This document shows, one piece after another, positions 2-13,163 of a stretch of 19,640 bases of DNA. The stretch's first letter is position 1. Each line of letters starts with the position of its first letter. The DNA lies in the NCBI GenBank assembly GCA_030765365.1, contig JAVCCS010000026.1, positions 1 through 19,640 of the forward strand. The letters run 5' to 3'. Source of the DNA: Candidatus Theseobacter exili (GTDB lineage Bacteria; Auribacterota; JACPWU01; Theseobacterales; Theseobacteraceae). Both the position numbers and the translations under genes were made by a program. Below the pieces are notes generated by a model. The model worked only from the letters and a program-made list of their open reading frames with translations, made no database searches and had not been told where the DNA came from.

Positions 2-232
2 CATTATTCTTTGGCAAAAGAAGGAATAAAAACGCTTCTTCAGGAAGAGGATCCAAAGATAGACAAAAATTTAATTAAGCAGATTGCTGACGAAGTAGCC
101 AGAGAAATCAGCGGCGAGCTAAAAAAGACAGTAAAGGGTTTGAAGATACCCGTTAGAGAAATAAGGGCGGTACAGGGAAAGAGGGACGAAGAGACGCGGG
201 AAGCGGTTAAAATAAAGACAGATTTTGAATAA
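2..232 (+). CDS. Hypothetical protein, 5' end probably truncated by the window edge; may be the 3' end of an upstream gvp-operon gene
   Basis: Frame is open from position 2; the ORF track begins at TTG 11. Stop TAA 230-232 sits 15 nt before the GvpF/L start, with the SD AAGGAG for the next gene in between. No family recognised. Confidence 0.35.
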   Translation, partial: HYSLAKEGIKTLLQEEDPKIDKNLIKQIADEVAREISGELKKTVKGLKIPVREIRAVQGKRDEETREAVKIKTDFE

Positions 233-247
233 AGGAGAAGGTGCGGG

Positions 248-1027
248 GTGGAAACATCTGTGAAAGAAGGTAAATATATTTATTGTATAATGGCGGCCGC
301 GGATTTGCCGGGCGGAACAAAAACTTTCAAATCGCTTGGAATCGGCGGGAGAGATGATGAGATATATGCTGTCGTTTATAGCGATATCGCCGCTGTAGTA
401 AGCAATTCGCCCATTGTGGCTTATTCCGTATCCAGAGAAAATATGATCGCTCATGAAAAGGCGATCGAAGAAGTGATGAAAGAGTATACGATTTTACCTG
501 TGAGATTTTGTACAATCGCCAAAGACGAAAAGACAGTGAAAACCATTTTAGAAAAGGGATATGGTAAATTCAAGGATATGCTGACGAAAATAGAGGGTAA
601 AAAAGAACTCGGTCTAAAAGCAGTATTTAACGCGGATGCCGTTTATGGCGATATTGTAGAAAAACATAAAGATATAAAAAGATTAAAAGAGAAGCTTAAA
701 GATCTGCCTGCCGATAAGACATATTACGAACGTGTAGAGATAGGCAGAATGGTGGAAAATGCTTTAGGAGAAGAAAGGGAGATCTATAAGGATGATATCT
801 TAAGCGCTCTTTCTCCGTTGGCAATAGAAACCAAGACCAATAATACGTATGGCGAAAAAATGATTGTCAATGCCGCCTTTTTGGTGGAGAAACAGAGAGA
901 AACAGAATTTGACCAAAAGGTTGATGAGCTTGGCGCAAAATACGGTGATACACTAAAATTTAAGTATGTAGGAACATTGCCGCCGTTTAATTTTGTTAAT
1001 CTAATAATTGAAACAGGAGGATACTAA
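248..1027 (+). CDS. gvpF: Gas vesicle protein GvpF/GvpL family
   Basis: GTG start with AAGGAG 10 nt upstream. The N-terminal GKYIYCIM..., ...AHEKAIEEVM...ILPVRFCT and C-terminal PPFNF are the conserved pattern of the GvpL_GvpF family. Confidence 0.8.
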   Translation: METSVKEGKYIYCIMAAADLPGGTKTFKSLGIGGRDDEIYAVVYSDIAAVVSNSPIVAYSVSRENMIAHEKAIEEVMKEYTILPVRFCTIAKDEKTVKTILEKGYGKFKDMLTKIEGKKELGLKAVFNADAVYGDIVEKHKDIKRLKEKLKDLPADKTYYERVEIGRMVENALGEEREIYKDDILSALSPLAIETKTNNTYGEKMIVNAAFLVEKQRETEFDQKVDELGAKYGDTLKFKYVGTLPPFNFVNLIIETGGY

Positions 1028-1276
1028 ATGTTCTTAATTGACAATATATTGCTTGCGCCATTAAATGGTGTAATTTGGGTAGGCAAAAAGATTAATGAGG
1101 TTATAGAAAAGGAGTTTTCTGATGAAGGACTAATAAAAGAAAAACTCATGCAATTACAGATGCGCTTTGAGATGGATGAAATAACTGAAAAAGAATATAA
1201 CACTCAGGAAAAAGAACTTTTAGACCGGTTAGACGATATTAAAAAAGCAAAAGAAAAGGGGTATGAATATGACTGA
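1028..1276 (+). CDS. gvpG: Gas vesicle protein GvpG
   Basis: ATG lies immediately after the gvpF stop and is preceded by AGGAGGA. The N-terminus MFLIDNILLAPLNGVIWVGKKI matches the hydrophobic GvpG signature. About 80 aa, as expected for GvpG. Confidence 0.75.
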   Translation: MFLIDNILLAPLNGVIWVGKKINEVIEKEFSDEGLIKEKLMQLQMRFEMDEITEKEYNTQEKELLDRLDDIKKAKEKGYEYD

Positions 1277-1532
1277 TATAACCCACGTTGGAAAAACTGT
1301 AAGCGATTTTTTAAAAGCCACACTTAATGTAAAAGAGGTAAAGGTTACTAAGGTGACCAAGGCCGATGAAAGTTGGGATACTGAGGCAGAGGTTTATGAA
1401 GCGAGTTCTTTCATAAAAGCTCTTGGGCTAAACACTAAAGTGCAGGATAGGAATTTCTATGAGGTTAAATTGAATAACAAGCTGGAAGTTGAATCTTATG
1501 GACGAAAAGACCAGCTGGGACAGAGTGAATAA
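1263..1532 (+). CDS. gvpO: GvpO-like gas vesicle accessory protein (tentative)
   Basis: Overlaps the gvpG end and the next start (TAATG). The ESWDTEAEVYE...RNFYEVKLNNKLEVESY pattern resembles the GvpO W...EVVE / YEI.LD..GEV motifs. Assignment from memory only. Confidence 0.5.
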   Translation: MNMTDITHVGKTVSDFLKATLNVKEVKVTKVTKADESWDTEAEVYEASSFIKALGLNTKVQDRNFYEVKLNNKLEVESYGRKDQLGQSE

Positions 1533-2326
1533 TGGACCTTATTTATTTGTATTATGTCACAAGGACAAAACCAAACCGCAGTAACCTTGAAGATATAGGC
1601 GCCGAAATCTGCCCAATTTATTTTCAAGATACCTATGCGGTTGTTAGTAAAGTGTCCAAAGATGAGTTTAGTGAAGATAATCTAAAGAAGAACTTGGCTA
1701 ATATGGAATGGGTAGAAAAAAGAATCCGACTGCATGAGAGGATAATCGAAGAAATTATGGAGAAGACAACAGTCCTGCCTTTTAAATTTGGGACAATTTT
1801 TGAATCCGGAGAGAATGTAGAAAAATTACTTAAAGAGCATAACGAAGAATATAAAAAAATAATTGCGAATTTAGAAGGAAAAGAGGAGTGGGGTATTAAG
1901 ATTTACTGCGATATAGAAAAATTAAAGGGATCTCTAACGTTAGAAAATGATGAGATTTCCAAGATAGATAAAGAGATCAGCTCTTCTTCTCCGGGTAAGG
2001 CGCATCTTTTAAAGAAGAAAAAAAATGAGCTTATAAAAAATGTTATAAATGAAGTAATTTCTGGATATACACAAGATAGTTTTGAGCAATTTATAAAAAT
2101 AAGTCTAGAAACAAAGATTAATAAAATATTACCCAAAGAGGTAACTGAGAGGAAGGACAGTATGGTTTTAAACGCCGCCTTTCTAATAAATAAAGAGAGG
2201 GTAAAAGAATGCGGCGGCATATTAGGATATCTAAAAACTAAGTATGCTTCCAAAGGGTTCGTATTTGATTGGACCGGCCCATGGCCGCCATATAATTTTT
2301 GTGATTTACCAAAGGAACAGGTATAA
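1532..2326 (+). CDS. gvpL: Gas vesicle protein GvpL/GvpF family (second paralog)
   Basis: N-terminal LIYLYYV, ...LHERIIEEIMEKTTVLPFKFGT and C-terminal WPPYNF: the same family signature as 248-1027. Confidence 0.8.
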   Translation: MDLIYLYYVTRTKPNRSNLEDIGAEICPIYFQDTYAVVSKVSKDEFSEDNLKKNLANMEWVEKRIRLHERIIEEIMEKTTVLPFKFGTIFESGENVEKLLKEHNEEYKKIIANLEGKEEWGIKIYCDIEKLKGSLTLENDEISKIDKEISSSSPGKAHLLKKKKNELIKNVINEVISGYTQDSFEQFIKISLETKINKILPKEVTERKDSMVLNAAFLINKERVKECGGILGYLKTKYASKGFVFDWTGPWPPYNFCDLPKEQV

Positions 2327-2327
2327 A

Positions 2328-2543
2328 ATGGATAATATAGTTACAAAATCAAAAGATGTGACTCTTTTAGAAATTTTAGACAGGGTTCTGGATAAGGGAG
2401 TGGTTATATCAGGTGATATAGTCATTTCCGTAGCCGACGTGGATCTCATATATATAGGCTTAAAAGTTATGCTTAGTTCGGTGGAAACCATGGAGCGCTT
2501 AAGAGGAGCGCCTATTGAAGGACCTATGCAGGAGCCAACATGA
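2328..2543 (+). CDS. gvpJ: Gas vesicle shell protein family GvpA/GvpJ/GvpM (GvpJ-like)
   Basis: The internal ATG at 2328 follows AAAGGAACAGG. TLLEILDRVLDKGVVISGDIVISVADVDLIYIGLKVMLSSVETM is the canonical GvpA-family core. The 28-codon ORF extension upstream overlaps gvpL and is not coding. Confidence 0.8.
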   Translation: MDNIVTKSKDVTLLEILDRVLDKGVVISGDIVISVADVDLIYIGLKVMLSSVETMERLRGAPIEGPMQEPT

Positions 2544-2863
2544 ATAAACCGTCCGTAGTCATAACAGTTAAAGAGCTAGAGGAAGTTAAAAATGCCAATC
2601 CCGAAAAGATCAATATTGACCCTAAAAATGTGGAGAAAGGGTTGGCAAAACTTGTTCTCACACTTGTAGAGTTGATTAGAAAACTTTTGGAAAAACAGGC
2701 GATAAAAAGGGTAGACGGAGGTTCTCTTTCGGATGAAGAAATAGAAAAAATCGGTGAAACTCTAATGAATCTGGAGAAAAAGATGAAGGAATTAAAAGAA
2801 ATTTTCGGTCTTAAAGACGAAGAGTTGAATATAAATTTAGGTCCTTTGGGAGATTTGCTATGA
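2540..2863 (+). CDS. gvpK: Gas vesicle protein GvpK
   Basis: ATGA overlap with gvpJ. LAKLVLTLVELIRKLLEKQAIKRV...NINLGPLGDLL matches the GvpK family pattern. Confidence 0.75.
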   Translation: MNKPSVVITVKELEEVKNANPEKINIDPKNVEKGLAKLVLTLVELIRKLLEKQAIKRVDGGSLSDEEIEKIGETLMNLEKKMKELKEIFGLKDEELNINLGPLGDLL

Positions 2864-2875
2864 GGGAGGGAAAAT

Positions 2876-3145
2876 ATGCATGAACATGAAGGAGAAGCAA
2901 AAATAAATTGTCCAACATTTCAGAAACAAGAACCAATAATGAAGGGACTTACAAATAAAATTAATACAAATAAAGAGATACAGGAGAAAGCAAAATTTGC
3001 TGAAGAGCTCCAAAAAGAAGTAGCGGTTCTGCTTTCTTGCCCGGATCATAAGAGCGAAAATTTAGACTGTAAGAATTGCCATTTCATTGCAATGTTACGC
3101 AAGAAGGCCGCGGATTTAATAATAAAGGCCAAAAAACTGGTATAA
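2876..3145 (+). CDS. Small Cys/His-rich hypothetical protein, last gene of the gvp operon
   Basis: Strong SD GAGGGAGGG precedes the ATG. It has 4 Cys (CPTF, CPDH, CKNC) and several His, and is followed by a hairpin. No family recognised. Confidence 0.5.
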   Translation: MHEHEGEAKINCPTFQKQEPIMKGLTNKINTNKEIQEKAKFAEELQKEVAVLLSCPDHKSENLDCKNCHFIAMLRKKAADLIIKAKKLV

Positions 3146-3152
3146 AAAAGTA

Positions 3153-3186
3153 ACACCCCGCACTTATAAGGAATTGTGCGGGTGTG
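3153..3186 (+). terminator. Candidate stem-loop downstream of the gvp operon (weak intrinsic terminator)
   Basis: ACACCCCGCAC...GTGCGGGTGTG near-perfect inverted repeat with a 12-nt loop. No clean U-tract follows, so efficiency is uncertain. Confidence 0.3.
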
Positions 3187-3447
3187 CCCCTTGTGGGCGA
3201 AGCTGGCTCAATAAAAAACGAACCAAACTGGAAAGCCCAATCTAGTTCGTTAAATATTTTTGGCTCCCGTATTGGACGACTTTCGCAACTGGTTGGTGAC
3301 TGAGTCGGATGCTTTTCTGTTGTTGAAAGAGAAGTTGTAAAAAAATACTACATAGCTATCTGCTTGGCATTAGATGTCTTTTTAGATAATAATACCCACC
3401 AAAATAAGTATTGAATTGTTGTTTTGGATGCCCAATAATATACATTC

Positions 3448-3816
3448 ATGAGTAAGATGGGGAAAATAGAAAAAGAAAATAAATTAAGGTTGTTTATGAA
3501 ACAGAATTCTTCTAAAAAATGGGATGAGTGTGAAAACCCGGAACCAGAGGATACTCCAGAAAGCCAAAAAACGGAAGGTTTTGTTCCTTTTTATGACGCT
3601 CTACGCCAAGTAGGAGTGAATGAAATTAAAATTGTTACAAAATTACCTTGGTATAAAGTTCTTTTATATAAAATAACTGGAAGAGAAATTCCTCTCCCGA
3701 TTGAAGAGGGCTGGGTTGATCAAATGGAGAAGCAGGAAAAAGAGTTCATAGAAGAACAGAAAAAACCAAAAGAACCTATCCCTGGTTGGAATAAGATAGA
3801 TCATATTGATGGATAA
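3448..3816 (+). CDS. Hypothetical acidic protein (start ambiguous: ATG 3448, 3457 or 3496)
   Basis: ORF of 122 aa. There is no SD before 3448, but a -35 TTGAAT/-10 AATAAT pair ends about 8 nt upstream, so it may be leaderless. Alternative ATG 3496 has AAGG upstream. No family recognised. Confidence 0.45.
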   Translation: MSKMGKIEKENKLRLFMKQNSSKKWDECENPEPEDTPESQKTEGFVPFYDALRQVGVNEIKIVTKLPWYKVLLYKITGREIPLPIEEGWVDQMEKQEKEFIEEQKKPKEPIPGWNKIDHIDG

Positions 3817-3957
3817 AAGACTTTTGAAGTTATCATTGTTCAAAATTTGATTTATGAATTTTCTTAGAAAAAATTAATGTGGTTCATTGTTGCATAAAAT
3901 GAGTTGAATAATAAATTAGTAGTTTATTAAGTTCCTTTGACTCGAGGAGTGCTTACT

Positions 3958-4329
3958 ATGAAATTGTTTATTTATCTTGAAAAGACAATTGCTGTAGCAT
4001 TTGGTATCGTACTATTTTTGATAACACTAAGAGGTTCTAATGATTTATTTGGTATTTCAAAATTTGCAGATAAAATCTATTTTACTGATGAGTTGAATTT
4101 TAAAAGAAATATTCTTGCACCTACATACAAGTGTGGCGAAATAGATGTTGACGATGCAAAAGAAATTCTTGCAGATTATCAACAAGAGCATTGGTTTAGA
4201 CACAGTATTGCTGTAGTTATCATTCTTTTAAACGGAATTTGCTCTCTTGCCCTTTCAATATTTACAATAATGCAGCTTTATGAGAAATATAGACTGTTGA
4301 GATTTAGAGAACGATTATTTGTCGAATGA
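3958..4329 (+). CDS. Small membrane protein with two predicted TM helices (alternative start 3937)
   Basis: Hydrophobic segments TIAVAFGIVLFLITL and HSIAVVIILLNGICSLALSIFTIM flank a soluble region of about 70 aa. GGAG lies upstream of ATG 3958. Confidence 0.5.
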   Translation: MKLFIYLEKTIAVAFGIVLFLITLRGSNDLFGISKFADKIYFTDELNFKRNILAPTYKCGEIDVDDAKEILADYQQEHWFRHSIAVVIILLNGICSLALSIFTIMQLYEKYRLLRFRERLFVE

Positions 4330-4400
4330 TTTCTTCTTAAGCCGTTAAAAGGAATCAAAAATTCAAGCAATAATAACCTGGTAGTTAATGGAATTTGATT

Positions 4401-5120
4401 ATGGAGGGGTTAACAAAAAGGAAATTTTGGCTAATAAATGTTTATTTCGATAAGCCATATTCTTTTAAGAAATCACATTACATTAGTACTATTGCGCTTG
4501 ATATGCTTAAGTTGCATTGTAGCGATGCTAAACAAATGGTTTCTTCTTTGATCTCGAAAAATATCCTTAGTCAGTCGCCTGATGGAAATAAAGTAAAGTT
4601 TACCGAATACGGTGTGGAATCTTATTTATCAATGAAAAATGCTCAAAAAGAATGGGAAAACCAGCCTATTATAAGGACTGCCACTATTGATCAAAAACAA
4701 ATAATTATTAATGCGGATGAAAAGTACAAAGCTGATCGTATACTTCGGGACATAGTTCAGGAGGCAAGGACAGAACTTTGCATTATTGATGCCTACTTAG
4801 GGTGTAATATTTTTGACTTGATAGTAGACTTGACTCCTTGTATTAAAGCACGTTTGATTTCTTCCAACAAAACATCAAAAACAGTTTTTACTACATATAA
4901 GGCAATTCGAGAGAAGAATCCGGGCATTGAGCTTCGGATTACGGACGAGGGGAAGATTCATGATCGGTACATATTATTGGATGGAAATAAAGCTTATCAT
5001 TTCGGTCATTCATTCAAGGATCTTGGTAGTAAGGATACACAGATTAATAGTGTTAATGATATTATATTACAGTATGATAATTTTGAGAAAAGGTGGGCAA
5101 AATCTACAAAAGTTGAATAA
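4401..5120 (+). CDS. Winged-helix N-terminal domain fused to a divergent PLD-like (H-x-R-x4-D) domain; possible nuclease (ORF also open from TTG 4395)
   Basis: The N-terminus is wHTH-like (ALDMLKLHCSDAKQMVSSLISKNIL...DGNKVKFTEYG). The C-terminus has ELCIIDAYLG...IFDLIVDL...ARLISS then KIHDRYILLDGNKAYHFGHS, resembling the PLD HxKx4Dx6GS motif with K replaced by R. A PD-(D/E)xK fold cannot be excluded. Confidence 0.5.
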   Translation: MEGLTKRKFWLINVYFDKPYSFKKSHYISTIALDMLKLHCSDAKQMVSSLISKNILSQSPDGNKVKFTEYGVESYLSMKNAQKEWENQPIIRTATIDQKQIIINADEKYKADRILRDIVQEARTELCIIDAYLGCNIFDLIVDLTPCIKARLISSNKTSKTVFTTYKAIREKNPGIELRITDEGKIHDRYILLDGNKAYHFGHSFKDLGSKDTQINSVNDIILQYDNFEKRWAKSTKVE

Positions 5121-5154
5121 TAACTGTCCTGTTTAACACTAATAGATTAGTAAT

Positions 5155-6102
5155 ATGAATATAATATCCATGAGTTACAAAGAGTTAAGACTTAGAGATG
5201 CAGTTTTAACCGCAATAAATAAAATACCAAATAGATATTTGGGATATACTTTTTGGGATTTTTCCAAAATGACAACTGTTCCAGATGAGTTAGTAAATTA
5301 TCATCCTCAAAGTATTCGACATATATTTCATGAACTTGAAAAAGATGGAATAATTGTTGCTTATAACTCTGAGCAAAATACACAAAAGAGACAGCATGTA
5401 TTAACATTTGAGGTGAAGGATTGTTTTGAAAATATATATTTTGCTTGGTGTCGTCAAAAAGAGATTTGTTTTGATGATTTGAGTTTTATGAAAAGGGAGG
5501 TCATTCATGATTTCCTTAAAGAAATATATTGTGAATTTGAGCTTTCATCAAATACAAAAATGAAATTTAAAGCTCCAGAAGATATCAATATTTTATTTTA
5601 CCTATTGCATAATCACGTTTTTGAATCATTTGTACATAACTATGACTACATACCTGAACCGTGTGTAGATATTGAGATAAATGCAAAAATCTTTCTAAAT
5701 TTTCTTCTTGAAATAGAGAAACAAAATAGTAATACAGATACAAGCAATAAGATTCAGTTTCCAATACAATGCAGTTGGGAGGATATTGCTATTAATTTTT
5801 TAGATGGCCATTATGTAAAGATTTCAGCTGCTGATTATAAAGATAGATTTAATTTTGTAGAAATGGGTTTTGAAAACAAGAATACTCGTCTACCTAACAA
5901 GCAATGGTTGTTATTAGAGTTATTAGCCAATAGTAACGGTTGTATTGATTGGGAAGATACTGAAGCCAACTCAAAACTCAAAAAGCAAAAGCAGTTACTT
6001 TCAAAGAAACTGCAGTTGTTTTTTAATATTCATTCAGATCCTTTTTATCCTTATCATAAAGAAAAATCTTACCGCATTAAAATCAAACTTATACCGTATT
6101 GA
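5155..6102 (+). CDS. Hypothetical 315-aa protein with two winged-helix-like segments (RepA-like architecture?)
   Basis: N-terminal SIRHIFHELEKDGIIVAYNSEQNTQKRQHVLTFE and C-terminal QWLLLELLANSNGCIDWED...KLKKQKQLLSKKLQ both look wHTH-like. Starts 34 nt after the previous gene. No confident family. Confidence 0.45.
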   Translation: MNIISMSYKELRLRDAVLTAINKIPNRYLGYTFWDFSKMTTVPDELVNYHPQSIRHIFHELEKDGIIVAYNSEQNTQKRQHVLTFEVKDCFENIYFAWCRQKEICFDDLSFMKREVIHDFLKEIYCEFELSSNTKMKFKAPEDINILFYLLHNHVFESFVHNYDYIPEPCVDIEINAKIFLNFLLEIEKQNSNTDTSNKIQFPIQCSWEDIAINFLDGHYVKISAADYKDRFNFVEMGFENKNTRLPNKQWLLLELLANSNGCIDWEDTEANSKLKKQKQLLSKKLQLFFNIHSDPFYPYHKEKSYRIKIKLIPY

Positions 6103-6115
6103 TAATTCTCTAACC

Positions 6116-6136
6116 GGGAAAACAACCTTTTCCCGT
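6116..6136 (+). terminator. Hairpin downstream of the 315-aa gene
   Basis: CGGGAAAA-CAACC-TTTTCCCG, a perfect 8-bp stem, followed by a T-rich stretch. Confidence 0.35.
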
Positions 6137-6246
6137 GAATTTCGTTGTCTTATTAAAAAAAAATCTGATTTTTTTTGGTTCATATTTCCGTACAAATCCA
6201 CAATTTAGTGAAATTTCGCCATTTTAGGGTAAAAGGACATTTAATA

Positions 6247-6414
6247 ATGGCGAAGTTTTCAGACAAATATCTCAAACAAACTATTGAAGTATGGAAACCA
6301 TACTATCCAGAGGTTCTTACTTTCGAAGATGCTCGTGAAATAGCTGAAAACACCATTGGTCTGTATAAACTCATTATGGAATTGGAAGGACATGAAGATC
6401 AGGCGAAAGTTTAA
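6247..6414 (+). CDS. Small hypothetical protein (55 aa)
   Basis: ATG 6247 has AAAGGAC upstream. Overlaps the next gene by 23 nt in another frame. The longer ORF from 6175 is unlikely because it spans the A9/T8 tracts. Confidence 0.35.
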   Translation: MAKFSDKYLKQTIEVWKPYYPEVLTFEDAREIAENTIGLYKLIMELEGHEDQAKV

Positions 6415-6814
6415 TGTTGGACTAATTAAGAAAACATTGTGTTACTCCACAAATGAAATAGCTGAATTGTTTTCTATACATAAAAGAACTGTTCAAACGT
6501 TGTACAAAGAAGGTCTTATGAAAATTGATGATAGAAAACCTTTTTTGGTAAAAGGGGCTGATTTGGTGGCCTTTATTAAAACTCGCCAGAAACAACATAA
6601 GAAGAAATGCGAGCAAACTGAAATGTATTGCTGTAAATGTCATTTGCCCAGGAAACCATTATCTGGAACTGTTGAATTAATTTTTATCAATAAAAGACAG
6701 ATTCAGTTACAAGCTTTTTGTTCGATATGTAAGACAAAAATCTTTAAGTTTATTAAGCCTGCGAAGTTAGAAGAGTATAAAAAAATATTTATGGTGAATA
6801 AGAGGCAATATTAA
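6392..6814 (+). CDS. Putative DNA-binding protein: HTH plus Cys-rich zinc-ribbon-like region
   Basis: GGAAGGA SD before ATG 6392. HTH-like STNEIAELFSIHKRTVQTLYKEGL. CCKCH...CSICK cysteine pairs. Confidence 0.45.
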   Translation: MKIRRKFNVGLIKKTLCYSTNEIAELFSIHKRTVQTLYKEGLMKIDDRKPFLVKGADLVAFIKTRQKQHKKKCEQTEMYCCKCHLPRKPLSGTVELIFINKRQIQLQAFCSICKTKIFKFIKPAKLEEYKKIFMVNKRQY

Positions 6815-6874
6815 GACTTATCTTAGTCTGTTGATTGTCTCGTAAACACTGACAAGAAGTAGAGGTGAAAAGAT

Positions 6875-7963
6875 ATGATTAAATACAACGCAAAAAATGA
6901 AAGAATAAAAAGAGAATATTTTGAATATCAAAGAGAAGCACGGCAGAAAAGTATTGCTACAGTAGACAATATAAGAAAGGCAATAGACCGGTATGAGAAA
7001 TATACTGATTATAAAGATTTTAAGACATTTAACAAGCGTCAGGCCGTTGGATTTAAAAAAAGCTTTTCTCAAACAAAAGGTGTTGCTTCGAAAGATTATT
7101 TGAGTAAATCAACCTTGTTATCAACAGTAAGAAACTTAAAAGATTTTTTTGGATGGGTGGCATATCAGCCCGGATATAAGAATATCGATATTAGGGATAT
7201 TGAATATTTGAATCTTTCTGAGAAGGATACCAGGATTGCTAAATCAAAAAAACAGCCTAAGGTTCCTACAATAGATCAAATAAGAAAAGTACTCAACTGC
7301 ATGCCTTATAAAACAGATATTGAAAAGCGGAATAGGGCTCTTATAGCATTTACTATTCTAACTGGAGTAAGGGATGGTGCTATTGCTTCATTAAAAATCA
7401 AGCATATTGATGTTGAGGAGAAGATTGTTAAGCAAATGCCGGATCAGGTTAAAACTAAGTTTAGTAAAACTATTTATACTTATTTCTTCCCTGTGGGGGG
7501 TGATATTGAACAAATAGTTGTAGATTGGATATTGTATTTAAAAAAAGAATTGTTTTTTGATGAAGAGGCACCACTTTTTCCCAGGACAAGACTAACTGTA
7601 TCAAGTGAAAACTGTTTTACGGCTTCAGGTTTAGAGCCTGTTCATTGGCAATCGGCCAATCAGATCAGAAAAATATTTAAAGTAGAATTTATAAATGCAG
7701 GGCTTTCTTACTATAGCCCGCATTGCTTTAGAAATACCATAACACGCTTAGGGGAGAGACTTTGCAAATCGGCTGAGGATTTTAAAGCCTGGAGTCAGAA
7801 TTTAGGGCATGAGTCTCCTTCAACTACTTTTACCAGTTATGGATATATAGAAACACACACTCAAGGTAAAATTATTAAGGAAATTGGAACAAGTGAAAAG
7901 AAAAGTACAGATGAAAAACTCGAAGAAATATTGGCTCGCCTTCCAAAACAGGAATTACTTTAA
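6875..7963 (+). CDS. Tyrosine site-specific recombinase / phage-type integrase
   Basis: GAGGTG SD. Catalytic-domain motifs RNRALIAFTILTGVRDGAIASL, HCFRNT (H-x-x-R) and LGHES...TSYGYI (catalytic Tyr). Confidence 0.85.
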   Translation: MIKYNAKNERIKREYFEYQREARQKSIATVDNIRKAIDRYEKYTDYKDFKTFNKRQAVGFKKSFSQTKGVASKDYLSKSTLLSTVRNLKDFFGWVAYQPGYKNIDIRDIEYLNLSEKDTRIAKSKKQPKVPTIDQIRKVLNCMPYKTDIEKRNRALIAFTILTGVRDGAIASLKIKHIDVEEKIVKQMPDQVKTKFSKTIYTYFFPVGGDIEQIVVDWILYLKKELFFDEEAPLFPRTRLTVSSENCFTASGLEPVHWQSANQIRKIFKVEFINAGLSYYSPHCFRNTITRLGERLCKSAEDFKAWSQNLGHESPSTTFTSYGYIETHTQGKIIKEIGTSEKKSTDEKLEEILARLPKQELL

Positions 7964-7985
7964 TAAGACTTGAAATAAACATAAA

Positions 7986-8005
7986 ATGTTATATTATGTT
8001 ATATT
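7986..8005 (+). repeat. Tandem 10-bp direct repeat ATGTTATATT x2 abutting the XRE start codon
   Basis: 7986-7995 and 7996-8005 are identical. The third unit starts with the ATG of the XRE ORF at 8006. Confidence 0.5.
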
Positions 8006-8191
8006 ATGAATATATTGGAAAGACTTGAACTATATCGTTTGGAAAATCGAGTTTCACAGAAAAAACTTGCGGGAATGCTTGGTGTGTCTTTTGCAACAGT
8101 TAATCGTTGGTTTAACGGCAGAACAAAACCTAATAAAATTCAGACATTTCATATTGAGAAACTTCTAAAGGAGCATGCCTTTGATGAATAA
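8006..8191 (+). CDS. XRE-family helix-turn-helix protein (possible Xis/RDF or element repressor)
   Basis: SQKKLAGMLGVSFATVNRWFNG is a classic HTH_XRE. It overlaps the recombinase start by 8 nt. Confidence 0.7.
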   Translation: MNILERLELYRLENRVSQKKLAGMLGVSFATVNRWFNGRTKPNKIQTFHIEKLLKEHAFDE

Positions 8192-9644
8192 GGCCATACT
8201 TTATACGCGTGTATCGAGTAAAGCACAAGAGCAGGACGGTTATTCTCTGGATGCGCAGGAGAAACTTGGCTATGAGTATGCGTTAAAAAAGGGTTTTGCT
8301 ATTTGCAAATCCTGGAAGGTTTCTGAATCTGCATGGAAACAGGACAGGGAAGCTTTTTCAGAAATGCTTGAATATGCGAAGCGTAATGAAAAAGTAAAAC
8401 ATATTATTTTTGATGTTACTGACCGTATGACGCGTAATGATTATGATAAGATAAGAATTTATACTTTGATTAGGGAGTATAATAAAACAATACATTTTTC
8501 GCGCAATAATAAAATCATAGATAAAGCCTCCGGTTCTGATGATGAATTTATGCTTGATATTGAGGTTGCAGTTGCTAAAAAGATGTCTAATGATATTTCA
8601 AAGAAAACAAGCATGGGGTTACTTGAAAAGGCTGAACAGGGTTTTTATCCTTCATTTGCGCCTATTGGATATATTAATAACAAGGTTACAAAGTTAATAG
8701 ATTTAGATCACGAAACTGCACATCTAATTAGGCAATGCTTTGAACTTTATGCGACCGGTAACTATTCTTTAGAGTCTTTACGGCACGAGATGCGGCATAG
8801 AGGCTTAGAAAGTTCTTCCAAGAGTAAGATTGCACATGTTTTGCATAATCCCTTTTATTATGGAGGTTTTATCTGGTTGGGAAAACTTTACATGGGGTCA
8901 CATAAACCAATTATATCCAAAGAGCTTTTTGATAAGGTACAACAGCTGTTAACAGGCAAACCATTAATACATAAACAGAAACATCTTTTTCACTTCAACA
9001 ATTTAATTACTTGCGGTGAATGTGGGTGCAAGGTAATTGGTGAACGTAAAACAAAGACAAGCGGTAAAGTATATGATTATTATCATTGTACTTTTTCAAA
9101 AGGAAGACATGGTTCAAATAAGTATTACAAGAACAGTTATATCGAAAAGCAATTTGAAAATATTGTTGAATCCGTGACTCTACCTGAAGATATGGCTGAT
9201 TGGATTGCCCAGGGAATAAAAGAAATAAGCAAGGACAGGTTCAGGGTGCAGGAAGTCAAAATAAAGCGTTTAAAAGGCGAATTAGCCCTTCTTAATGCAA
9301 GGTTAAGCAAGTTATATGATATGAAGTTAGACGGTGAAATTGAAGATGGTATGTTTAAATCAAAAGAAGCTGAGTTTAAAAGTACTATTGCTGAACTTAC
9401 TATAGCGGTTTCTTATGCTGAAAAAGAAAATCGTGATTACTTTGAAACTGGAAGGCAAACCCTCGAACTCTCTAAACGCTTACATAAACAGTATGTTAGG
9501 GCAGATGGTATTAATAAGGCAATAATCTTACGTTTTATAGCTTCGAACTACACTCTAAATGACGCAAGTCTTTCTCCTGCAATGAGAAAGCCCTTCAGCA
9601 TCTTTGCTAAAGGGCTATCCCGTACAATTTGGCTCCTCGGGTAA
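8184..9644 (+). CDS. Large serine recombinase (resolvase N-domain + recombinase domain + zinc ribbon)
   Basis: AILYTRVSSKAQEQDGYSLDAQ catalytic-Ser motif. CGECGC...YYHC zinc ribbon. C-terminal coiled-coil. The last 5 codons and the stop lie inside tRNA-Asn. Confidence 0.85.
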   Translation: MNKAILYTRVSSKAQEQDGYSLDAQEKLGYEYALKKGFAICKSWKVSESAWKQDREAFSEMLEYAKRNEKVKHIIFDVTDRMTRNDYDKIRIYTLIREYNKTIHFSRNNKIIDKASGSDDEFMLDIEVAVAKKMSNDISKKTSMGLLEKAEQGFYPSFAPIGYINNKVTKLIDLDHETAHLIRQCFELYATGNYSLESLRHEMRHRGLESSSKSKIAHVLHNPFYYGGFIWLGKLYMGSHKPIISKELFDKVQQLLTGKPLIHKQKHLFHFNNLITCGECGCKVIGERKTKTSGKVYDYYHCTFSKGRHGSNKYYKNSYIEKQFENIVESVTLPEDMADWIAQGIKEISKDRFRVQEVKIKRLKGELALLNARLSKLYDMKLDGEIEDGMFKSKEAEFKSTIAELTIAVSYAEKENRDYFETGRQTLELSKRLHKQYVRADGINKAIILRFIASNYTLNDASLSPAMRKPFSIFAKGLSRTIWLLG

Positions 9645-9704
9645 GACTCGAACTTACAACCTAGTGGTTAACAGCCACCCGCTCTACCATTGAGCTACCG
9701 AGGA
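9630..9704 (-). tRNA. tRNA-Asn (anticodon GUU)
   Basis: The reverse complement folds as a canonical cloverleaf: acceptor UCCUCGG/CCGAGGA, anticodon loop CUGUUAA, T-loop UUCGAGU, G73, encoded CCA. Confidence 0.85.
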
Positions 9705-11625: not shown

Positions 11626-11702
<77 letters not shown>

Positions 11703-11707
11703 ATTTA

Positions 11708-11784
11708 GGCGGATTAGCTCAGTTGGTTAGAGCAGGGGAATCATAATCCTCGTGTCCGGGGTTCGAATCCCTGATCCGCTACCA
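11708..11784 (+). tRNA. CAU-anticodon tRNA (elongator Met, or tRNA-Ile2 lysidine substrate)
   Basis: GGCGGAUUAGCUCAGUUGGUUAGAGC...AUCAUAA...GGUUCGAAUCC...AUCCGCUACCA. Anticodon CAU. Identity as Met versus Ile2 cannot be decided by eye. Confidence 0.8.
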
Positions 11785-12392: not shown

Positions 12393-13163
12393 CTATAGGA
12401 GTTTTTTATAGGCGATACAACCAATAGCTCCTATATGCATTGTGCGGGCAGGTACGATTATTCTGCATTGCAGTTTTTCTTTAAACATGTGAATTATTGC
12501 CTGATTTTTCGCGCAGCCTCCGGTAATTACAACCGGGAGGTTGTCTTTAAGAAAAGGTTCTATATAAGGCAGGGTTTTTTGTACCAAGCTTAAGTTTACT
12601 CCGGCAGCTATTCTTTCCCGGGGCATTCCCCGGGAAAGAAGGGCTACCAGTTCTGATTCAGCAAATACTGCACAAGTACTTGATATCGGAATAGGATTTT
12701 TCCAGTATTGACCAAGTTTTTTTATGGAGATCTCAAGTATTCTTGCCATATTTTCCAAAAATCTTCCGCTGGAAGCTGCACAACGAGGGTTTGTCTGCAT
12801 GTCAGCAGGCAGCCCGTCTTTTACCAGCACAACCTTGAAGTCTTGTCCTCCCATATCAAGGTTTATGAAGTTTTCCATTTTTGTTTGTTTTGCAGTTCCA
12901 AGCGAGTGAGCAATTAGTTCAGATATTGTTTGTCCTCCTTGAACGTTTATTCGGTTTTTCCCGTATCCTGTGCTAATTATTTGCATTGGTGATGTTTCAG
13001 GAATTTTCATACGGGTAAAACTCAAAACCAGGTTGTTCTCATGCTGTTCTATGTAGTTACGGTAAAATGAGATTGTGCTGTATGTTCTATAATGTGTTTT
13101 TCCCTTTGCATCAAGAAATACAATTTTTACGTTTCTGCTTCCGAAGTCTATTCCAATTATCAT
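12393..13163 (-). CDS. CoA-substrate-specific enzyme activase (HgdC/BcrAD, BadF/BadG family ATPase)
   Basis: IGIDFGSRNVKIV, DMGGQDFKVV, CAASSGRFLE and VITGGCAKNQ match the acetate/sugar-kinase-fold activase family. Confidence 0.8.
   Translation of the reverse strand: MIIGIDFGSRNVKIVFLDAKGKTHYRTYSTISFYRNYIEQHENNLVLSFTRMKIPETSPMQIISTGYGKNRINVQGGQTISELIAHSLGTAKQTKMENFINLDMGGQDFKVVLVKDGLPADMQTNPRCAASSGRFLENMARILEISIKKLGQYWKNPIPISSTCAVFAESELVALLSRGMPRERIAAGVNLSLVQKTLPYIEPFLKDNLPVVITGGCAKNQAIIHMFKEKLQCRIIVPARTMHIGAIGCIAYKKLL

Follow-up and report, generated by a model that had tools for sequence, protein, structure and literature searches.

Introduction

Large serine recombinases (LSRs) such as phiC31, Bxb1, TP901-1, A118, SPbeta SprA, and CcrAB of SCCmec share a resolvase domain with a conserved serine, a recombinase domain, and a zinc ribbon. 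Serine integrases act in one direction and, where studied, do so independently of host factors; they recombine through a 2-bp staggered cut at a central dinucleotide, and attL and attR are left with little common sequence. Most known LSRs insert into protein-coding genes or between genes; tRNA genes are seen as the preserve of tyrosine integrases, which usually use longer segments of the tRNA 3' end. Here we examine a locus from the metagenome-assembled genome (MAG) of Candidatus Theseobacter exili, in which an LSR gene of the same general make-up runs into the 3' end of a tRNA-Asn gene. The window referred to throughout is the entire 19,640-bp contig on which this locus lies. We consider it likely that positions 3261 to 9636, approximately, make up an integrative element of 6.4 kb whose own LSR inserted it at the very 3' end of tRNA-Asn.

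A 2020 survey by Mageeney et al. described tRNA use by a serine integrase as previously unreported, and listed 14 tRNA candidates, still needing proof, among 297 serine-integrase islands (PMC7192596); in addition, a tRNA-Met site has been predicted for one Paracoccus phage (PMC6536676). In the literature after that survey we found only scattered single predictions of tRNA sites for serine integrases. The LSR of the window resembles the described large serine integrases in the very short core of its attL and attR sites, in half-sites that form an imperfect inverted repeat, and in having a small neighbouring protein that could be a directionality factor. Unlike them, its whole clade—1448 homologues—uses tRNA 3' ends and carries attP inside the end of the integrase open reading frame (ORF).

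In its setting, the locus resembles the islands of tyrosine integrases (P4, SXT, and Islander-type): the integrase gene lies beside a tRNA gene, the tRNA 3' end is restored, tandem arrays form at one tRNA, and defence cargo (restriction-modification systems and GmrSD) is found in relatives. It differs from those islands in recombinase class, in the 7–10 bp repeat placed at the extreme 3' end, and in the overlap of the integrase ORF with the tRNA. An attP inside a gene whose product changes on integration is known from the SSV1 integrase and the cluster G mycobacteriophage repressor; here, likewise, attP is placed inside a coding sequence and the integrated and excised forms have different C-termini, but only a few non-conserved terminal residues change. 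A terminal integrase accompanied by an internal second recombinase-like protein is found in alphaproteobacterial pipolins (an LSR integrase and a small serine resolvase; PMC11551731) and in SGI1 (Int and MpsA; PMC6414798), where the second protein acts on the circular form. The second enzyme of the window, in contrast, is a full Xer/Cre-like tyrosine recombinase (YR) with a dedicated helix-turn-helix (HTH) partner, and its function is a guess.

The clade spans Omnitrophota, Planctomycetota, Elusimicrobiota, Saccharimonadia, and Legionella, and its consistent use of extreme tRNA 3' ends is what sets it apart on ground ascribed to another enzyme class. The anatomy of its attachment sites can be read directly from DNA: attP in the integrase ORF, a conserved P' arm, and a tRNA terminator within coding sequence. 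Because serine integrases are unidirectional and, where studied, free of host factors, and because tRNA ends are present in every genome, such integrases could serve as ready-made landing-pad tools with a predictable attB.

The integrase gene and its overlap with tRNA-Asn

The tRNA-Asn(GTT) gene lies on the minus strand at 9630–9704 and is intact (ARAGORN; Rfam tRNA model, 71.5 bits at 9633–9704); at most 7 of its terminal nucleotides are element-derived. On the plus strand, the ORF of the LSR, the integrase (8175–9644), encodes 489 amino acids (aa), or 486 aa from the ATG at 8184 (NCBI protein P0001), and ends with TGG CTC CTC GGG TAA at 9630–9644, which reads W-L-L-G-stop. The two genes overlap by 15 nt, the LSR end being antisense to the CCA, the discriminator, and the acceptor end of the tRNA. 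An earlier reading of the window (the original prediction) had proposed that W-L-L-G and the stop are encoded by the 3' end of the minus-strand tRNA-Asn; ARAGORN, Rfam, and the ORF ends all agree with it.

By domain content the integrase is a standard LSR—what is unusual is its target and the layout of its sites. Pfam assigns Resolvase (PF00239, E 4e-18, residues 7–156) and Recombinase (PF07508, E 1e-14), the PDB matches are TP901-1 integrase and a resolvase N-terminal domain, and PHROG annotates the protein as an integrase. Residues R12, S14, and S15 are invariant across 26 homologues, as are the zinc-ribbon ligands C280, C283, and C305, with H304 conserved; residues of about 340–420, a candidate for the directionality-controlling coiled coil that LSRs insert in the zinc ribbon, have a helical, heptad-like look, judged by eye.

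The 1448 LSR homologues provide the comparison for the overlap. Tails were read in the 120 best of them, and 20 loci with relatives at 26–58% identity to the window LSR were fetched from Omnitrophota, Planctomycetota, Elusimicrobiota, Endomicrobia, Saccharimonadia, Legionella, and unassigned metagenomes; a scan of genome contigs gave 8 loci, the source genome not being among them. Wherever a tRNA gene follows the LSR (14 of 14 loci), it lies on the opposite strand and the ORF extends 10–42 nt into its 3' end, so the overlap is not due to chance. The tRNAs entered in this way are those for Asn, Asp, His, Arg, and Glu, and the overlap persists down to 26% LSR identity with the window enzyme. A conserved, syntenic neighbourhood around the same overlap would have spoken for a stationary gene pair; the opposite was found, with relatives at different tRNAs in unrelated neighbourhoods. 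Because both the tRNAs and the neighbourhoods differ between loci, we regard the overlap as the mark of a mobile element and not of conserved synteny.

At the C-termini of the homologues, a conserved RKPFxxxAKGLSR motif precedes a variable tail. The tail reads W-L-P-x-x-D-S-N... in 62 of the 120 best homologues, which corresponds to the antisense of the CCA, acceptor stem, and T-arm; 30 more end, like the window LSR, after only a few codons, and in 6 the tail runs into the P' motif described below. Altogether, tRNA-type tails are present in at least 92 of these 120 proteins. Searches of IMG/VR with a single protein and with an alignment gave no confirmed LSR relatives, and nothing indicates a phage nature for the element.

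Three groups of relatives deserve separate mention. One locus (L026, NZ_LR134433.1:242406-261416) belongs to the type strain Legionella adelaidensis NCTC12735 and encodes an HTH protein, a tyrosine recombinase, and an LSR whose ORF overlaps tRNA-Asn by 30 nt; the record is labelled a plasmid, yet it has uvrB and other apparently chromosomal genes. As a cultured type strain with this locus, it is tractable for experiments. Two loci carry two LSR elements in tandem at one tRNA (L002:10001-18573 at tRNA-His and L014:10001-17341 at tRNA-Asn), and in both the inner LSR tail enters the left end of the next element instead of the tRNA. Finally, the LSR tail of L011 contains a 37-nt diverged copy of a tRNA-Asn 3' end that reaches the anticodon loop (L011:11449-11485), unlike the short cores of the other loci; a HEPN/nucleotidyltransferase pair lies between this copy and the intact tRNA (13029-13104).

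Attachment sites and boundaries

The original prediction also took the overlap as the signature of integration at the tRNA 3' end by an element of some 6 kb, and this reading can now be given its boundaries: attL, attR, and a displaced native terminator. The attR core, TGGCTCC, lies at 9630–9636 on the plus strand. Left of the tRNA there is one further copy of TGGCTCC, in direct repeat at 3261–3267 on the plus strand; this attL core corresponds to the displaced original last 7 nt of tRNA-Asn (GGAGCCA on the tRNA strand), and together with the two preceding T's it forms a 9-bp repeat (3259–3267). Directly abutting the attL core is the P' arm, the arm of the element's left-end site (3268–3292, plus strand; CGTATTGGACGACTTTCGCAACTGG). 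Within the window there is no long direct repeat of the tRNA 3' half, and a crossover in the anticodon loop or T-loop is excluded for the window copy on that ground.

The P' motif is shared across the family. It follows the tRNA-derived core at the left ends of the window element, L009, L011, and L014, and it follows the end of the LSR ORF at attP-type junctions in L017–L020. In the alignment GACGA..TT...AACTGG is invariant, within a family motif of TATTGGACGAsTTTCGCAACTGG, and the P' region of the window is 94% identical to that of L019/L020 over 34 nt (blastn). Direct repeats of the tRNA end analogous to that of the window are present in L009, L011, and L014. The motif is absent from L021 and L023, which are islands with a tyrosine recombinase and without an LSR.

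From these parts, attP can be reconstructed as ...CGTACAAT T TGGCTCC CGT ATTGGACG..., with its half-sites inverted around the core. The core common to attL and attR is 7–10 bp, and the half-sites CGTACAAT / ATTGGACG are symmetric about TGGC-T-CC. When the window core (TTTGGCTCC) and the L019/L020 cores (GCCCC) are registered on the P' motif, they overlap in TCC (9634–9636). Crossover is predicted to fall within this TCC, tRNA positions 70–72, because it is the sole sequence that the window and L019/L020 cores have in common. The predicted empty-site junction, attB, is ...GTTCGTTAAATATTTTTGGCTCCTCGGGTAAGACTCG..., and the predicted junction of the excised circle, attP, is ...CCCGTACAATTTGGCTCCCGTATTGGACGACTTTCGC....

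The left boundary is also marked by a terminator. A strong intrinsic terminator on the minus strand at 3217–3251, with a 16-pair stem followed by TTTTATT, ends 10 nt outside the attL core on the tRNA strand—it is placed where the native terminator of the tRNA should sit in the empty site. We assign it as the native terminator of tRNA-Asn, located in host DNA, in the B arm of the former attB. At the other end, a terminator-like hairpin for the tRNA lies inside the LSR coding sequence, in the KPF...KGL codons (9589–9616, minus strand); it has 12 pairs followed by TTCTCATT, is 14 nt past the tRNA 3' end, and has a folding energy of -27.5 kcal/mol (z -5.2). A 15-pair consensus stem is kept in 10 loci, with 4 pairs changed on both sides, and some of the pair changes alter the LSR peptide, such as KGL to EWP in L017. 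With this hairpin the element seems to carry, within the integrase gene, a substitute terminator for the tRNA: insertion would separate tRNA-Asn from its native terminator at 3217–3251, and the hairpin at 9589–9616 would take its place.

The element is lower in GC than its surroundings, with a GC content of 0.28–0.35 over most of the element tract versus 0.33–0.41 in the gas-vesicle and TilS flanks; the right flank, beyond tRNA-Asn, holds tilS.

Proposed mechanism of the overlap

The layout of the sites suggests how the overlap would arise. In the proposed mechanism attP extends across the LSR gene end: its P arm would be formed by the final ~50 nt of the ORF and its crossover core by a copy of the last 7–10 nt of the tRNA, and the P' arm partly resembles the tRNA segment across the crossover. 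Recombination within the core, predicted at the TCC of TGGCTCC, would leave the tRNA unchanged and the LSR gene set against it. The ORF would then read into the tRNA, since the closing part of the LSR gene serves as P arm and the tRNA lies beyond the crossover. Its stop would be the first stop codon offered by the antisense tRNA, which would make the W-L-L-G tail a by-product.

In the excised circle, the LSR tail would read W-L-P-Y-W-T-T-F-A-T-G-W. A functional, state-dependent tail that works as a regulatory switch was considered and appears unlikely, since the reading frame through P' differs between members (YWTTFATGW in the window, LDEFxNWL in others); the tail, moreover, is not conserved.

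Mobility of related elements

Two sets of relatives provide evidence of movement. The L017 contig, 6649 bp long, begins and ends with the same 30 nt, as expected from a circle in a k=31 assembly. It encodes a small protein, an HTH protein, a tyrosine recombinase (60% identity to that of the window), an XRE protein, a 139-aa protein, an LSR, and three more proteins, and its attP has the predicted form. L019 and L020, which stem from two samples, are identical over 6943 nt, parting exactly after ...ACTGCCCC at the 3' end of a tRNA-Gln; past the split, one contig runs on through the body of tRNA-Gln, and in the other the P' motif and new DNA follow. Mobility is shown in relatives only, by the circular L017 and by the occupied versus further-occupied pair L019/L020; the current mobility of the window copy is inferred.

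Role of the tyrosine recombinase

The YR gene (6875–7963, plus strand; 362 aa, Phage_integrase PF00589) is preceded by a gene for a 152-aa excisionase-like HTH_17 protein (6356–6814, plus strand) with C-terminal CxxC pairs and a Pfam HTH_17 match (E 9e-6) just below the cut-off. Homologues of this HTH_17 protein lie upstream of the tyrosine recombinase in L002, L003, L009, L017, L018, L019, L021, and L023. In the YR itself, R166, K195/K198, H283, R286, H312, and Y322 are invariant, so that the R-K-H-R-H-Y set is kept. Both domains of its structural model (predicted local distance difference test, pLDDT, 86) match XerA, Brujita Int, IntI4, and Cre over ~330 columns. The protein consists of core-binding and catalytic domains and has no arm-binding domain, as in simple tyrosine recombinases of the Xer/Cre type.

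Several LSR elements do without a YR and have the same tRNA-end junctions or their remnants (L011, L013, L014, L016, and the second element of L002, L002b). Conversely, the pair of HTH protein and YR (35–37% and 55–57% identity) occurs in L021, from Thalassospira, and in L023, from a 2.1-Mb genome, in islands that each have their own P4-type integrase (L021:7303-18268 and L023:7125-17698; beside tRNA-Ser in L023). A complete type I restriction-modification system lies directly downstream of the pair in both, and the module seems to travel with defence cargo. Since this module is also present where an island has a P4-type integrase of its own, the YR probably does not serve as integrase of the window element; the comparison suggests a portable accessory module with an HTH partner. 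Our best guess is that the YR acts in an Xer/Cre-like manner on the excised circle, in multimer resolution or circle maintenance. One option named in the original prediction was a recombinase that works as a resolvase or invertase; an accessory role of this complete Xer/Cre-like enzyme would fit the resolvase option. The module is widespread and uncharacterised, and it is found beside defence cargo in islands with unrelated integrases.

A different function is suggested by the relaxases of the MOB_M type, such as MpsA of SGI1, TcpM of pCW3, and MobK of pIGRK. These proteins derive from tyrosine recombinases, keep the catalytic residues, and are often annotated as integrases, and 96% of them lie near a true integrase (bioRxiv 10.64898/2026.01.13.699239; PMC6414798; PMC8152469). 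If the YR were such a relaxase, nicking an origin of transfer (oriT), the island would be an integrative mobilizable element in which the LSR integrates and the YR-like protein mobilises by conjugation. The YR is indeed always the internal second gene of islands that have another terminal integrase (LSR or P4-type), it is always accompanied by a small DNA-binding partner, and in L009, L018, and L019 the module is preceded by repeats of CTGAAA-type motifs. However, BLASTP against TcpM, the one member compared, gives E = 0.5, the NCBIfam scan returns no relaxase family and just weak Xer matches, and none of the loci has conjugation genes. The YR is also longer, at 362 aa with a full core-binding domain, than TcpM (266 aa), and in SGI1 the core-binding-like domain sits on a separate protein, MpsB (PMC6414798). 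We consider a relaxase unlikely, though it is the main rival reading of the YR, and return to the YR as an accessory recombinase of an LSR-borne element.

Alternative explanations

A number of observations weigh against insertion by the LSR as described above, or against parts of it. The Zn_ribbon_recom match of the LSR (PF13408) scores 25.0 bits against a cut-off of 25.3, 0.3 too low. The 7–9 bp repeat is by itself compatible with chance, a given 7-mer being expected ~0.6 times in 9.6 kb, and the boundary therefore rests on the adjoining P' motif and terminator. Searches for the core and the motif found no left ends in L013 and L016. Exact-match scans of metagenome contigs with the predicted empty attB and with the tRNA right flank gave 0 matches each, as did a scan of viral contigs with the predicted attP. 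The L017 contig could also be the product of a chromosomal tandem duplication, and the case for recombination in this family comes from sequence. As to the YR, no convincing conserved dif/lox-like site (two inverted arms of 11–13 bp around a 6–8-bp spacer) was found in the intergenic regions of the element, and the role given to it above is a guess.

The same scans are the ground for viewing the window copy as a relic that has become fixed in the species and has lost its ability to excise: neither an empty site nor an attP read was found, and the MAG provides a single contig from one sample. This we judge quite unlikely, given what the copy retains—nine ORFs, every one intact, conserved catalytic residues in both recombinases, perfect core repeats, and a P' motif that fits the family consensus.

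The presence of two recombinase classes at one tRNA led the original prediction to suggest nested or composite elements. On such a reading, a YR element would have taken the tRNA first and an LSR element would have inserted beside it later. Tandem arrays do form at such sites (L002, L014, and L019/L020), and the YR module is portable between island types. The suggestion did not survive comparison with the relatives. The order small protein, HTH_17-like protein, YR, XRE, optional cargo, and LSR is found in the window, L002, L003, L009, L015, L017, L018, and L019/L020, and in Legionella adelaidensis (L026) it recurs minus the XRE gene; counted as independent loci, it is seen at least nine times, in several phyla and including the circular 6.6-kb form. 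The recurrence of YR, XRE, and LSR in this order across phyla therefore indicates a fixed architecture, not a nested composite. Nine contig sizes are, in addition, common to the best-120 LSR and best-120 YR lists. The composite fails because there is no att remnant between the recombinase genes: the 42 nt from the YR stop to the XRE start contain nothing tRNA-like or P'-like, and XRE plus LSR alone would have no left end. A composite origin is very improbable on these grounds.

That the YR and its excisionase-like HTH partner integrate and excise at the tRNA, leaving inversion or resolution to the LSR, would suit the classical role of tyrosine integrases as tRNA-targeting enzymes (PMC7192596), a 7–9 bp common core fit for a tyrosine-recombinase overlap region, and an HTH_17 gene placed before the YR as in xis-int operons, but it is extremely unlikely given that the gene abutting the tRNA is the LSR in every locus, that the conserved P arm is formed by the LSR C-terminal coding sequence, that elements without a YR keep the same junctions, and that YR islands without an LSR have no P' motif and use a P4-type integrase.

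Other genes of the element

The proposed boundaries enclose nine ORFs, all on the plus strand. The first three lie in a low-GC tract and have no assigned function: a 122-aa protein (3448–3816), a 130-aa protein with a hydrophobic N-terminal stretch (3937–4329), and a 241-aa protein with a weak N-terminal Rep_O-like match (4395–5120). No homologues of these genes (3448–5120) were found in the related loci. They are followed by a 315-aa protein (5155–6102) whose model shows a generic winged-helix fold only and which may be a replication initiator or regulator. Its C-terminal domain of ~115 aa occurs in 2190 representative proteins with varied N-termini, and a Pfam scan of ten relatives of the 315-aa protein returned no family.

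The small protein of the conserved gene order, of ~55 aa (6247–6414), is the most widely shared LSR partner. It is found by tblastn at 38–60% identity in L009, L011, L013, L014, L016, L017, L018, and L019, and in loci without a tyrosine recombinase its gene lies directly upstream of the LSR; it is a candidate directionality factor or regulator. The 61-aa XRE-type HTH protein (8006–8191; HTH_3 PF01381), whose gene overlaps the LSR start, is likewise a candidate regulator or directionality factor. It is conserved at 59–73% identity in 11 related loci, across phyla, which is higher than the LSR identity (26–55%), and it has a weak NCBIfam match to the VC1465/XafT family of Xer activation factors.

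Between XRE and LSR, relatives carry either a methylase and a helicase or an EcoRI-type methylase and GmrSD/HNH; in the window this slot is empty. An integron-like nature of the slot was considered and rejected, as the genes overlap by a few nt and there is no room for recombination sites.

Two further observations concern the region upstream. In L011, the exact position of the YR, after the small protein and before XRE, is taken by a 368-aa protein with a DNA-ligase/capping-enzyme domain (L011:6999-8105). The operon of small protein, HTH protein, and YR is preceded by CTACTGAAA / TTTCAGTA motifs, repeated and inverted, in L009:3685-3875, L018:2015-2170, and L019:1340-1500; an operator, an origin, or a site for a recombinase could explain these motifs, which are not obvious in the window.

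Single-gene units without an LSR

Downstream of the LSR and before tRNA-Gln, L019 (7049-9045) and L020 (5040-7459) contain LSR-less single-gene units of 878 and 1015 bp. Each unit encodes a different methyltransferase on the tRNA strand; CCCC and the P' motif form its start, and a homologous terminator hairpin forms its end. Over ~120 nt the two junctions share 84% identity, there is one unit more in one sample than in the other, and the whole has a cassette-like look.

A bolder proposal, which we regard as a long shot, is that this LSR clade recognises any tRNA acceptor/T-arm end through a P' arm that mimics it, and that it may build arrays of LSR-less cassettes. If true, this would amount to an integron-like platform that collects defence genes and is run by a serine recombinase, and the YR module, which lies beside a variable cargo slot, may then join in cargo exchange or transfer.

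Flanking features

The left flank of the element is occupied by a gas-vesicle cluster (11–3145) with GvpL/F twice, GvpG, a GvpA/J-like protein, and GvpK; a hairpin at 3153–3186 closes the cluster just left of the island. To the right, at 11626–11784, there are two tandem tRNA-Met(CAT) genes, 5 nt apart.

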